A DNA stretch of 64,000 nt from Krischvirus LF73P4. The stretch's first letter is position 1; each line of letters opens with the position of its first letter. The stretch is from sequence record OZ035795.1; one strand, written 5' to 3'. Positions 44,923 through 47,976 of this stretch are shown here, piece by piece. Below the pieces are notes generated by a model. That model searched no databases and had not been told where the DNA came from. It saw only the letters and a program-made list of their open reading frames with translations. The translations under genes were made by a program, and so were the position numbers.

Positions 44923-45345
44923 TTATTGGTCTACCTTCAAAACAACCGCCGACATTTTACCCGCCAGTCGTTTTGGATTCTCTATAATCATTCGGCAGCA
45001 TAGACCGTGATATGGCTTACCCTCTTCGATTAGATCTACTGTCATCCCGATCCACATGTTACCGTCAGTAATTTCTAATCGATTCGGACGGTCTTCCATT
45101 TTCAGGAAGTCGAAGATCTCCGGCAAACGAGTTTCTATCTTATTGAATAGTTCCATTGTCTTATGTTCATCGATATGACGATCGGTTAGACGGTCGATCA
45201 TATGCGGACTAAAGCGAATGAAAATATACTCACCATAACCATCATTCAAGCACTTTTCTTTGATCTGTGCATTGGTTTTGCGCATTTCGGTTTCGAAGAA
45301 TCTACGCAGCTTACTACGGCGAACATGTACGTTAATTGTTTCCAT
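44923..45345 (-). CDS. regB: RegB site-specific endoribonuclease
   Basis: RSKLRRFFE, RLEITDGNMWIG and CRMIIEN match recalled T4 RegB; start at METINVH after AAGGA. Confidence 0.85.
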   Translation of the reverse strand: METINVHVRRSKLRRFFETEMRKTNAQIKEKCLNDGYGEYIFIRFSPHMIDRLTDRHIDEHKTMELFNKIETRLPEIFDFLKMEDRPNRLEITDGNMWIGMTVDLIEEGKPYHGLCCRMIIENPKRLAGKMSAVVLKVDQ

Positions 45346-45349
45346 TTTA

Positions 45350-45685
45350 TTATCCTTTCTTAAACAAATTGCGAAGCCAGTATACAAACGGGATTTCTTT
45401 AAACTTGAACTTGTCAATAGTTAATTCTTTAGTAGCAAGATGAATACCATAAGCATCATGTGTAACTATATGCCATTTTCTATAGTCCAAATGTGAACAA
45501 CCGTCTGGATCTAGGTTAATAAGAGTTTCTCGCTCACTAGAATTATTTTTCCACAATTTTGTAATAGGATCGCACATAATTCGACCTAGCGTACCATGAA
45601 TAATCTCACAACGGTAAAGTTTTCCAGCAGTGAGATAGGCGCACCCGTCATAGTCGGTATAAACAAACACTTCTTTAACACTCAT
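45350..45685 (-). CDS. small protein, tandem family (copy 3, internally repeated)
   Basis: Start at MSVKEV after GGAGTA; shares motifs with the next two genes. Confidence 0.45.
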   Translation of the reverse strand: MSVKEVFVYTDYDGCAYLTAGKLYRCEIIHGTLGRIMCDPITKLWKNNSSERETLINLDPDGCSHLDYRKWHIVTHDAYGIHLATKELTIDKFKFKEIPFVYWLRNLFKKG

Positions 45686-45745
45686 TTTAATACTCCTTTG
45701 TTGTTTCGATGGGGGTATATTACTACCCCCGATCATGGGTGTCAA
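45686..45745 (-). promoter_or_regulatory. PeSL-type early promoter/stem-loop cassette
   Basis: TTGACA-17-TAATAT; hairpin GGGGGTAGTAATATACCCCC. Confidence 0.55.
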
Positions 45746-45991
45746 CTACTTTTTCAAGATTTTTTTGAGTGCATTCCAAAGACCTTTATTCCCAGGTTGT
45801 TTTGGTTCTTCGATCAGTGTCCATGTTCGACCGTCTAAGTGTGCACAATTTTTAAGACAAATAAAAATCTGGTGTCCCTTATCATCACGGATATAACCAC
45901 TATTCGCAAATCTTTCATGTGGTGTATATTCATACAGTGTATTAGGTGTAATATACTTGCGGTTACTATAAGGTGTCATCACATACATCAT
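45746..45991 (-). CDS. small protein, tandem family (copy 2)
   Basis: ATGA overlap with upstream stop; GYIRDDKGH..HLDGRTWTL parallels copy 1. Confidence 0.45.
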   Translation of the reverse strand: MMYVMTPYSNRKYITPNTLYEYTPHERFANSGYIRDDKGHQIFICLKNCAHLDGRTWTLIEEPKQPGNKGLWNALKKILKK

Positions 45992-46182
45992 GGTACTAAC
46001 TCCCAACGATCACCGCGAAGATGAGAACATCTACCATCAAGAAGTATTGTAATACGATAACCTATATCATCTTTGATGTAACCGATTGTCGGTGGATTTT
46101 CGTCGTCTCGTGCCGGGGTAAAATCATACATCTTTCCGGGCGTAATATCTTGTCCTTTATTGCTATTGGTATAAACTTGCAT
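45988..46182 (-). CDS. small protein, tandem family (copy 1)
   Basis: AGGAGA RBS; GYIKDDIGY..HLRGDRWEL. Confidence 0.5.
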   Translation of the reverse strand: MQVYTNSNKGQDITPGKMYDFTPARDDENPPTIGYIKDDIGYRITILLDGRCSHLRGDRWELVP

Positions 46183-46203
46183 TTTCTTAATCTCCTATAT
46201 TAA

Positions 46204-46902
46204 CTAACCACGGGTATAGTGTTCCAGAACAACTGTCAGATGAATATATTCTAATAGATCTTTCCAAAAGTCAACATCTGGTTCTTCCGGCATACCGTTT
46301 TTCTTTGCCTCTTCACGCGAGAGTTTAACACGCTCGTAGAGATCTTTCAATTCTTCCCGCACATTATCAAAGGTTCTTTCTCCTAACTTACACGCTAAAA
46401 TAGAAGAACGTCGCGCGAGCGGGAATTGTAGATCACCTGTCTGATAGATTTCAAGTAGCTGATAACCAACACGCAGAGCATGAGAAAGATCTTTCCAGTT
46501 ACTGAAATACTTTTCAGATTTGGCTACCTGCTTTTTGAGATAGCCAGACAAACCCCACATACCAACATGATAGAATTTATCTCGATGTGTTCGGATGTAT
46601 TCCCATTCTCTGGAGGATTCAATCAACATGTTACTAGGAGCGTGCACCATGTCAATAGCGCCGATATCGCCTTTACATGCCAGATTGATAAACCGTTTTA
46701 GACTGAACATATTAACATCAATATCGTCTTTGGTGTTCTTGATACCTTGACCGCTAGTGCTTTGGTCATAGTGTTCTTTCATAGATCCTAAGATAATTTC
46801 TTTCGCAGTCGGAACAAAGATACCACGATAATCTTTATCTGAATTTTCAGTATCAAGGCCGTACAAGTGAGATCCGAAGACCATTTTAACCATTGTATGC
46901 AT
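46204..46902 (-). CDS. nucleotidyltransferase-fold protein (Pol-beta superfamily)
   Basis: N-terminal GSHLYGLDTENSDKD fits the G[GS]-x(9-13)-DxD signature. Confidence 0.5.
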   Translation of the reverse strand: MHTMVKMVFGSHLYGLDTENSDKDYRGIFVPTAKEIILGSMKEHYDQSTSGQGIKNTKDDIDVNMFSLKRFINLACKGDIGAIDMVHAPSNMLIESSREWEYIRTHRDKFYHVGMWGLSGYLKKQVAKSEKYFSNWKDLSHALRVGYQLLEIYQTGDLQFPLARRSSILACKLGERTFDNVREELKDLYERVKLSREEAKKNGMPEEPDVDFWKDLLEYIHLTVVLEHYTRG

Positions 46903-46920: not shown

Positions 46921-47514
46921 TTAAACGTATTCAGCAACAACATTATGTTTAAAATTACCGCTCCTTTTTGGATTTGGATTTTTCAATCGACTATGTATTA
47001 AATTTTTGTTGTATCCGGTTGCTTTAGACGCTTCGCCAATACTTTGATAAACAACACCATTAACACGAATCGGACGAGACTTATTAAACAGTTTATTCAA
47101 TCCGGCATCATATGCATGGTTTTGGTTTTCTTGCCTCGTTGCGATCTCAAGATTCCAAACACAATTACAAGATTTTACCCCACTTTTATGATTAATTTCA
47201 AGACCTTCACAATCACCTATAAAGTGTTCAGCAACTAGTCTATGAATATAGCTATATTTCTTACTTTCCCCATCATGCAAGCATACATTATAATAACCAT
47301 CACCAGCGCGTTTAGGTCGGAGTAGTTTACCTTTAACACGTTTTATAGTAGGGAACTCACCAAATTGATTTCTCTGGATAAACGGAATCTCGCGGTCTAA
47401 TGAACGGATTCGACCATAGTTAGACACTTGATAAAAACTTTCATATCCTTTAATTGGCTTCCATATCTCAGGGATTTCTACACCATCAATAACAACAAGT
47501 TTAAATTCTTCCAT
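46921..47514 (-). mobile_element. free-standing HNH homing endonuclease
   Basis: NUMOD4-like GYESFYQVSNYGRIRS plus HNH region HRLVAEHF..EINHKSG..NLEIATRQENQNH. Confidence 0.75.
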
Positions 47515-47562: not shown

Positions 47563-47976
47563 TTACATAGATTCCGTAAAGGTACGGGTGATAATATCAA
47601 GTTGTTGTTCGCGTGTCAAGGCGTTGAAGCGGGTAGCATAACCACTGATTCGAATTGTAAGCTGCGGGTACTTCTCAGGATGTTCAACCGCATCAAGAAG
47701 AGTCTCCCGACGCAGTACATTCGCGTTGAGATGATGACCCGCGTTACTATTTACCCCGTTATCAATTGCTAAAGGACGGAAGCTAGTTGTGTGCAGTGCC
47801 AGCGAATCGACGTCTTCTGCGGTGATCACATGGTCTTCTGCGAAAGTTTTACTAACAATTACTTTAGCGCCGATCAGTGCTTTCGGTTCGGATACCAGAA
47901 TCATAGGCGCGAAGTGTCCACCAATAATAGTACCTTTATGCTCACCTTTCATGATTTGAATTGCTTTAAATTCCAT
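47563..47976 (-). CDS. GrcA/YfiD-like autonomous glycyl-radical cofactor
   Basis: C-terminus ..[33 protein letters not shown] nearly identical to recalled E. coli GrcA; a T4 homolog (Y06I) is known. Confidence 0.8.

Follow-up and report, generated by a model that had tools for sequence, protein, structure and literature searches.

Three tandem, diverged members of a family of small phage proteins upstream of regB in Krischvirus LF73P4

The stretch of 64,000 nucleotides (nt) of Krischvirus LF73P4 analysed here (sequence record OZ035795.1; referred to as the window) contains three small genes, designated g1, g2 and g3, which lie head to tail on the minus strand and are followed downstream by regB, the gene of the endoribonuclease RegB (PF10715). 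A preliminary description of the window had taken these three open reading frames (ORFs) for tandem paralogs preceding regB. The ORFs were recovered on that strand, and comparison of their products demonstrated that they are homologous, collinear copies of one protein family (phrog_6261/phrog_15978). The g1 and g2 proteins shared 25 of 63 residues (40%; BLASTP, E 6e-13), and their Smith-Waterman score of 104 was reached by none of 2000 shuffles (22.5 +/- 4.2; z 19). The g3 protein aligned collinearly with g1 (BLASTP, 30% over 67 columns, E 1e-3) and in two collinear segments with g2, with shuffle z values of 4.9 and 4.3, respectively. In profile searches, residues 3-76 of g3 matched positions 1-73 of the 73 positions of phrog_6261 (E 4.7e-37) and g1 matched the same profile over its full length (E 1.8e-27), while g2 matched phrog_15978 over the full length (E 8.4e-60) and phrog_6261 with an E-value of 6.5e-6. 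The g1 protein also matched phrog_15978 (E 8.6e-8); g3 matched phrog_6261 only. A hidden Markov model (HMM) of the family built in this study found exactly three members in the window, namely g1, g2 and g3 (E 1.4e-18 for g3). All alignments were collinear, so that the objection of non-collinear motif matches, which the preliminary description had raised against its own proposal, fails. The motif that it had reported for g1 and g2 is indeed common to both, but in the form given it needs a one-residue gap in g2 (ILLDGRCSHL versus ICLKN-CAHL).

The three ORFs are short, and in phage JSE the corresponding small genes are annotated merely as hypothetical proteins; literature searches revealed no published work on them. 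Shortness and annotation as hypothetical proteins would also fit chance similarity between non-coding frames. This explanation was excluded, and its probability is negligible, by the pairwise E-value of 6e-13 and profile E-values down to 1e-60, by ratios of nonsynonymous to synonymous substitution rates (dN/dS) of 0.16-0.35, by the preservation of the frames in all relatives and by the confident fold prediction for g1 described below.

Table 1. Coordinates of the g1-g3 genes and of adjacent features in the window.
Feature	Coordinates	Strand	Description	Basis
g1	45988..46182	-	64 aa; bare family domain	ORF; phrog_6261 match; AlphaFold2 model
g2	45746..45991	-	81 aa; domain at about residues 1-62, followed by short basic amphipathic tail GLWNALKKILKK	
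g3	45350..45685	-	111 aa	
g3, start codon and domain part	45458..45685	-	residues 1-76; profile match from residue 3	
g3, C-terminal extension and stop codon	45350..45457	-	residues 77-111; ends in predicted basic amphipathic helix FVYWLRNLFKKG	
regB endoribonuclease gene	44923..45345	-	140 aa	PF10715, E 1.1e-48, 165.4 bits against a cut-off of 27
regB translation initiation region	45355-45345	-	GGATAATAAAA; overlaps the g3 stop codon	
nrdC.11 (RlaP-type nucleotidyltransferase)	46204..46902	-		PF10127, E 3.6e-14; JSE annotation
Promoter-early/stem-loop cassette between g2 and g3	45686..45745	-		promoter scan; stem-loop scan
g1 translation initiation region	46185..46195	-	GGAGATTAAGA	Shine-Dalgarno; sequence

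The architecture of g3 required correction. It had been read as two half-copies of the repeated unit, but residues 3-76 were collinear with the entire unit and were followed by an unrelated tail. Because these residues cover phrog_6261 over its whole length, g3 consists of one collinear unit with a 35-residue extension and not of two half-units. Residues 77-111 displayed no relation to the domain (z -0.2). The impression of half-copies probably arose from an internal echo in g3 between SVKEVFVYTDYDGCAYL and SERETLINLDPDGCSHL (z 6.9; ...DYDGCAYL versus ...DPDGCSHL), the second half of which is the C-x-H-L motif of the family. At the level of the family profile no significant internal repeat was detected in g3 (hhalign E 0.07 over 5 columns), and the two half-copies were rejected. 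Weak matches of g3 to FosA (NCBIfam) were likewise dismissed as chance, as they reached about 18 bits against cut-offs of 180-310 and covered 20 residues.

The three proteins have retained the family signature to a different extent. The g1 protein carries it in full, g2 has TPNTLY, DDKG, CAHL and the tryptophan, and in g3 TAGKLY, CSHL and the tryptophan are kept while DDxG has degenerated to NNSS. They also differ in their C-termini. The g1 protein ends with the domain, whereas g2 and g3 possess basic, amphipathic tails with hydrophobic moments of 0.66 (GLWNALKKILKK) and 0.65 (FVYWLRNLFKK), respectively. In the AlphaFold2 model of g3 a helix was placed at residues 99-109, but with low confidence (predicted local distance difference test score, pLDDT, 49). 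In phage JSE, g2 (L001, 3824-4093) is annotated with 89 residues; loss of the stop codon extends its frame by about 8 codons into the following promoter element (...KKNLEKVVDTHDRG). The g2 tail is therefore not strictly conserved.

When 1.84 billion cluster representatives were searched exhaustively with a profile, 173 of them matched at E<=1e-3. Most of the family proteins are free-standing and 58-75 residues long (mostly 60-70), a few carry two or three domains per chain (P0023, P0025, P0034), and in others the C-terminal extension varies (Tad2-like, DUF3850, a Cys-rich segment). Three candidates (P0027, P0089, P0128) were discarded as repeat proteins that matched only over a 20-residue stretch. 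For further analysis, 148 proteins were aligned, comprising the three window genes and 145 representatives from the search. Of these, 138 matched phrog_6261 and 119 matched phrog_15978, so that the two can be regarded as one superfamily. Both PHROGs lack a functional annotation and are kept as separate families there; neither the single superfamily nor the occurrence of three copies in tandem, with g1 and g3 matching phrog_6261 and g2 matching phrog_15978 over the full length, is recorded in that resource. Searches of Pfam gave no match for the three proteins and essentially none among the 148 relatives, apart from scattered sub-threshold matches mostly to fused domains. No match of substance was obtained from NCBIfam, and no sequence match from the Protein Data Bank (PDB).

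Phage records containing the family belong to Krischvirus, to Vibrio phages of roughly 135 kb and to some siphoviruses of E. coli, Klebsiella and Morganella. At two loci inspected outside Krischvirus, in Bas09 and in Vibrio phage helene, the family gene has other small hypothetical genes as neighbours, and the annotation shows no regB in the flanking few kb inspected. Two adjacent or nearby family genes were also observed in unrelated siphovirus-type genomes, namely in Bas09 (L004, 3186-3800, bas09_0083) and in an IMG/VR contig (L016, 3755-4177 and 4632-4862), and in such pairs one of the genes has an additional domain. Copies thus cluster recurrently in the family.

Alignment of 161 domains yielded the signature V-x-T...Y-[IL]-T-x-G-K-x-Y ... 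I-x-D-D-x-G ... C-[AS]-H-[LI]-x-G-x-x-W-x-[VIL]-[VI]-E. Apart from the tryptophan (98%), the conserved residues are located in the turn motifs TxGKxY, DDxG and CxHL, with tyrosine at 100%, threonine at 96%, lysine at 93%, cysteine (C53) at 90%, aspartate at 89% and histidine (H55) at 85%. Family domains are mildly acidic, with a median net charge of -4 and a median isoelectric point of 4.8. An AlphaFold2 model of g1, generated from an alignment of 11 sequences, was all-beta with a pLDDT of 90.1 and a predicted template modelling score of 0.76, and the family domain of about 60 residues is predicted to form an SH3-like small beta-barrel. Searching the g1 model with Foldseek revealed nothing significant in the PDB; in BFVD it retrieved viral proteins without functional annotation (uncharacterised, unnamed or DUF-type). 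The 66-residue barrel protein Gp54 of phage Bas11, whose function is unknown and which triggers CapRel (PMC11578894), was considered as a relative. Its structure (PDB 9axb, the CapRel SJ46 trigger) is no closer to the g1 model than any other SH3 domain, and no sequence homology to the family was detectable. Gp54 was therefore rejected as a relative, the resemblance being limited to the fold level; the family-bearing phage PaulSarasin is Bas09 and not Bas11.

The conservation of C53 and H55 raises the question of a metal-binding, redox or catalytic mini-domain built around Cys-x-His. A second GC motif accompanies it in g3 and in roughly 39% of family members. In addition to the near-invariance of both residues, 47 of the 161 domains have an N-terminal cysteine, and g3 contains the pair DGCAYL / DGCSHL. 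However, most members, g1 and g2 included, offer just two conserved potential ligands. In the g1 model C-x-H-L lies in a short 3-10 turn of a type usual for SH3-like folds and may be structural, and the few recognised fusion partners (Tad2-like, DUF3850 and other domains of unknown function) are not enzymes. We therefore judge such a chemical role very improbable.

A further possibility is an RNA- or ribosome-binding barrel, resembling SH3-like folds of the Sm, KOW or Tudor type, with early mRNAs or ribosomal protein S1 as its target, through which it would influence translation or the choice of RegB/S1 targets. In its favour, RegB, the RlaP-type nucleotidyltransferase and Vs, which modifies valyl-tRNA synthetase, are RNA-related neighbours, DUF3850 / phrog_986, annotated as 'RNA-binding protein', is the fusion partner of one family member, and the tails of g2 and g3 are basic. 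Against this stand the mildly acidic character of the domain itself and the lack of any sequence match to an RNA-binding family, and we give this role little credence.

The genes are not arranged as uniformly coupled units. The preliminary description had assumed that their starts are coupled by ATGA overlaps, which holds for the g1/g2 junction only, where the g2 ATG overlaps the g1 stop codon (45991-45988). The g2 and g3 genes are 60 nt apart, only 4 nt lie between the g3 stop codon and the regB ATG, and nrdC.11 ends 21 nt before g1. The spacer before g3 contains, in this order, a stop codon, a -35 element TTGACA (45745-45740), 17 nt, a -10 element TAATAT (45722-45717), a Shine-Dalgarno sequence GGAG (45696-45693) and the ATG. 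In the promoter scan it matched a sigma70-like promoter at 10 of 12 positions (TTGACA-17-TAATAT), and a stem-loop, GGGGGTAGTAATATACCCCC (45730-45711), overlaps the -10 element. In the hyperplastic regions of RB49 and phi1, promoter-early/stem-loop (PeSL) elements serve as strong early promoters and as terminators and mediate gene shuffling (Arbiol et al. 2010, PMC2839356). The element before g3 comes from the same phage group and has all parts described for PeSL (upstream stop codon, sigma70-like -35 and -10, GGGG...CCCC stem-loop over the -10, Shine-Dalgarno, ATG); judged by these parts, the segment 45686-45745 is a PeSL-type cassette and corresponds to one of the subclasses in that paper. 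It is conserved in the contig L002 and in relatives. PMC2839356 makes no mention of regB or of paralogs.

At least 11 PeSL cassettes were found on the minus strand of the window (at about 54183, 52381, 45730, 39751, 37674, 37282, 36120, 32850, 32605, 30473 and 27806), composed of GTTGACA, a GGGG...CCCC stem-loop, TATAAT, a GGAG Shine-Dalgarno sequence and ATG. A single base distinguishes the stem-loop at 54183-54164 from that at 45730-45711, which makes the two potential recombination partners. Unlike a series of PeSL cassettes each carrying one small ORFan gene, only g3 is preceded by such an element, g1 and g2 are joined by the ATGA overlap and no element follows g3, which argues that the trio does not represent three separate cassettes. 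As g1 starts only 21 nt after nrdC.11 and has no promoter cassette, g1 and g2 are probably co-transcribed with nrdC.11. They would be read from upstream early transcripts and coupled translationally via ATGA, while g3 and regB would be read from the PeSL early promoter. No late-promoter motif was present between 44800 and 47100.

The translation initiation regions of g1 (GGAGATTAAGA) and g3 (GGAGTATTAAA) each match the RegB/S1 target consensus GGAGRAYARAA (PMC1702504) at 9 of 11 positions. Since their GGAG-type Shine-Dalgarno sequences resemble the RegB/S1 target, the synthesis of g1 and g3 is probably a short early pulse ended by RegB. Similar sites, however, precede 27 of 80 putative minus-strand genes, which indicates ordinary early-gene regulation and not a special link to RegB, and the GGAG Shine-Dalgarno sequence, present in 43 of the 80, was rejected as a specific indication of such a link. 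The initiation region of regB itself reads GGAUAAUAAAA in this phage (45345-45355), in agreement with the GGAU Shine-Dalgarno exception described for RB49 regB (PMC3014915). In L002, L006, L010 and L011 it reads GGAGAAUAAAA, the exact 11-mer of the T4 RegB/S1 consensus, which suggests that autoregulation of regB is conserved.

The window has the gene order vs.8, a 41-codon ORF, vs.6 (GrcA-like), an HNH homing endonuclease gene, nrdC.11, g1, g2, g3, regB, vs.1, vs and tk.4 on the minus strand. The vs.6 product (47563-47976, minus strand) is a GrcA/YfiD-like autonomous glycyl-radical cofactor (PF01228, E 1e-15), as in the T4 annotation. The HNH gene (NUMOD4/HNH_3, 46921-47514, minus strand), located between vs.6 and nrdC.11, is found in L007 and absent from L006, while JSE and L011 have another HNH gene instead, the usual presence/absence pattern of mobile genes. 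Phage T4 likewise has three small early genes, vs.3, vs.4 and vs.5, at the same position between vs.6 and regB. Their products are unrelated in sequence to the family and look helical, and the family HMM found no match in T4 positions 55-72 kb, so that they were rejected as homologues of the trio.

The genome is of the Krischvirus type (RB49/JSE/phi1-like), and 58 phage records, all Krischvirus, match a 2-kb stretch around the trio with 90-99% nucleotide identity. A comparison of copy number among relatives, which the preliminary description had suggested as a check, revealed three copies in all 58 Krischvirus records and two copies or one in other lineages. Every record with this regB also has g3 and the whole 2-kb block. 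In the more divergent metagenomic relatives L006-L014, the order RlaP, g1, g2, g3, regB and the three copies are kept. Between the window and L006, amino-acid identity was 92% for RlaP and 91% for RegB, in comparison with 73% for g1, 56% for g2 and 45% for g3. The corresponding dN/dS values were 0.12 and 0.07 for the neighbours and about 0.24, 0.32 and 0.18 for g1, g2 and g3. Over the divergent relatives the trio ranged from 0.16 to 0.35, and g1 from 0.24 to 0.35. These ratios, together with the lower identities, indicate that g1-g3 are real genes under purifying selection which evolve several times faster than their neighbours.

Two alleles of g3 were distinguished, of 111 and of 100-103 residues, whose domains differ widely (only about 45% identity) between invariant flanks. 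The last ~65 nt of g3 (45351-45416) together with the regB initiation region are about 97% invariant at the nucleotide level in five lineages, synonymous sites included (nucleotide conservation of the g3 end, 90-97%). For the remainder of g3 these lineages show only about 45% identity at the protein level, and for regB about 85% at the nucleotide level. Neither RNA structure (z +0.8) nor a good sigma70 promoter was found in this invariant g3 3' end and regB leader. Its invariance could possibly reflect the regB leader, a recombination boundary or a constraint on the C-terminal helix. Mosaic genes were also observed. In L002, a contig from the European Nucleotide Archive, a fusion at GYIKDD links residues 1-38 of g1 with the C-terminal half of a g2 allele (45-296, P0005). 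Downstream of this chimera come g3 and regB, so that L002 has two copies, but as the chimera occurs in a single contig an assembly artefact is possible. The g2 gene of L007 (4195-4440) is a mosaic of two g2 alleles. Read at the sequence level, paralogs and alleles have recombined.

A different state was found in three further T4-type lineages whose RegB is 49-69% identical to that of the window. In these, one untailed g1-like gene lies directly before regB at a distance of 12-52 nt (L018/L019, 1854-2048 in L018; L020/L021, 808-993 in L020; L023, 3001-3186). The spacer between the g1-like gene and regB contains GGGG...CCCC stem-loops in L018 and L020, and extra weak family copies occur in L018 (607-843) and L023 (4102-4392). 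At T-even-type regB loci in IMG/VR, 26 of 27 had no family member within 2.5 kb.

The adjacency, common orientation and collinearity of the three genes, the existence of single-copy relatives and the presence of g1-like proteins among the best non-orthologous matches of g2 would suggest a recent in-place tandem triplication of one gene in the Krischvirus ancestor. Similarity ranks, however, point elsewhere. In the set of about 147 family matches used in this analysis, mostly cluster representatives from the exhaustive search, more than 130 proteins, dozens of them from unrelated phages, resemble g3 more closely than g1 or g2 do; g2 ranks 134th and g1 139th. Moreover, g1 and g2 share just 40% identity, lineages in which g3 shows 45% identity already have the trio fixed, and g3 is set apart by the PeSL, a known vehicle of gene insertion. 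A recent triplication is thus unlikely, and the ranks instead suggest that g1-g3 are old, strongly diverged paralogs which are not each other's nearest relatives. The nearest relatives of g1 are the single-copy g1-like genes (45-59% identity). In the simplest scenario, a single g1-like gene beside regB would represent the older state; its tandem duplication would probably have produced g2, which then gained a basic tail, and g3, a much more distant member, would have a separate or much older origin and may have been brought in as a PeSL cassette. This three-step history is inferred from similarity ranks of short sequences and not from a phylogeny.

The position of the trio directs attention to RegB. 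The RegB fold is similar to that of RelE/YoeB toxins, and the existence of an anti-RegB partner has been posed as an open question (PMC3014915). In a layout like that of a toxin-antitoxin pair, the small protein encoded upstream would bind RegB and so delay, restrict or target its action. A family member immediately precedes regB in Krischvirus and in the three further lineages with RegB of 49-69% identity, and in Krischvirus one PeSL promoter would serve g3 and regB, with 4 nt between them. In g3 an invariant tail is combined with a domain of about 45% identity, which by analogy recalls antitoxins with a variable N-terminal domain and a toxin-binding C-terminus; the binding element of g3 might be the invariant C-terminal helix. 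As in type II systems, a small gene lies directly upstream of, and is probably co-transcribed with, that of a RelE/YoeB-fold RNase, and the C-terminal helix is conserved. However, known antitoxins (RHH, Phd/YefM, AbrB-type) have no sequence or fold relation to the trio, and the consistent co-occurrence expected of type II pairs was not observed, as the family occurs without regB and regB without the family. This is illustrated by the 26 of 27 T-even-type IMG/VR loci mentioned above, by T4 with its unrelated Vs.3-Vs.5, and by the family members of Vibrio phages and E. coli siphoviruses, among which the Bas09 and helene loci have no nearby regB. In addition, the single-copy g1-like proteins have no tail, and the invariance of the g3 tail extends to synonymous sites, so that it may reflect the regB leader RNA and not the protein. 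Altogether an antitoxin-like or modulating role towards RegB appears quite unlikely. Still somewhat less credible is the narrower proposal that the regB-adjacent member is the long-suspected RegB partner in RB49-type lineages, a role that would fall to g3, with its invariant C-terminal helix, in Krischvirus and to the single g1-like protein elsewhere, with the extra paralogs tuning this control or backing it up.

With moderate confidence, we favour the reading that g1-g3 are three diverged members of an uncharacterised family of mini-proteins in the hyperplastic early region between nrdC.11 and regB. More tentatively, we propose that the barrels may be small non-enzymatic early binding modules for macromolecules of the host, or possibly of the phage, which would act in host take-over or counter-defence. 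Three copies and two g3 alleles would supply different specificities, and a second contact, with a membrane, nucleic acid or partner protein, would come from the basic amphipathic tails that g2 and g3 possess. This proposal is based on the fold class, the size, the acidic surface, the fast evolution, the allelic replacement, the copy-number variation, the tandem arrangement of genes and domains and the varied fusions. Several observations weigh against it. No annotated relative in the libraries, and no paper found, assigns a function. The near-invariant cysteine (90%) and histidine (85%) could mean metal binding or chemistry, and the g1-like gene beside regB where RegB is only 49-69% identical could indicate a RegB-linked role. 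The g3 model is unreliable (pLDDT 49), and since 43 of 80 putative genes have a GGAG Shine-Dalgarno sequence, sensitivity to RegB does not single out the trio.

The cluster described here is of a known kind, small ORFan genes that form a group of paralogs within a hyperplastic region of the T4 type, and this example had remained unannotated. If the proteins were ordinary host-binding accessory factors the finding would be routine, and its interest is modest unless the link to RegB is real. Nevertheless, two unannotated PHROG families are joined into one domain family that has no entry in Pfam, NCBIfam or the PDB and for whose member g1 an all-beta fold is confidently predicted. This family extends over Krischvirus, Vibrio phages, E. 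coli siphoviruses and metagenomic contigs. With one, two (the chimera) or three copies and two alleles of g3, the locus represents a compact natural series for the duplication, recombination and replacement of accessory genes, and it bears on the question whether the toxin-like RNase RegB has a protein partner.

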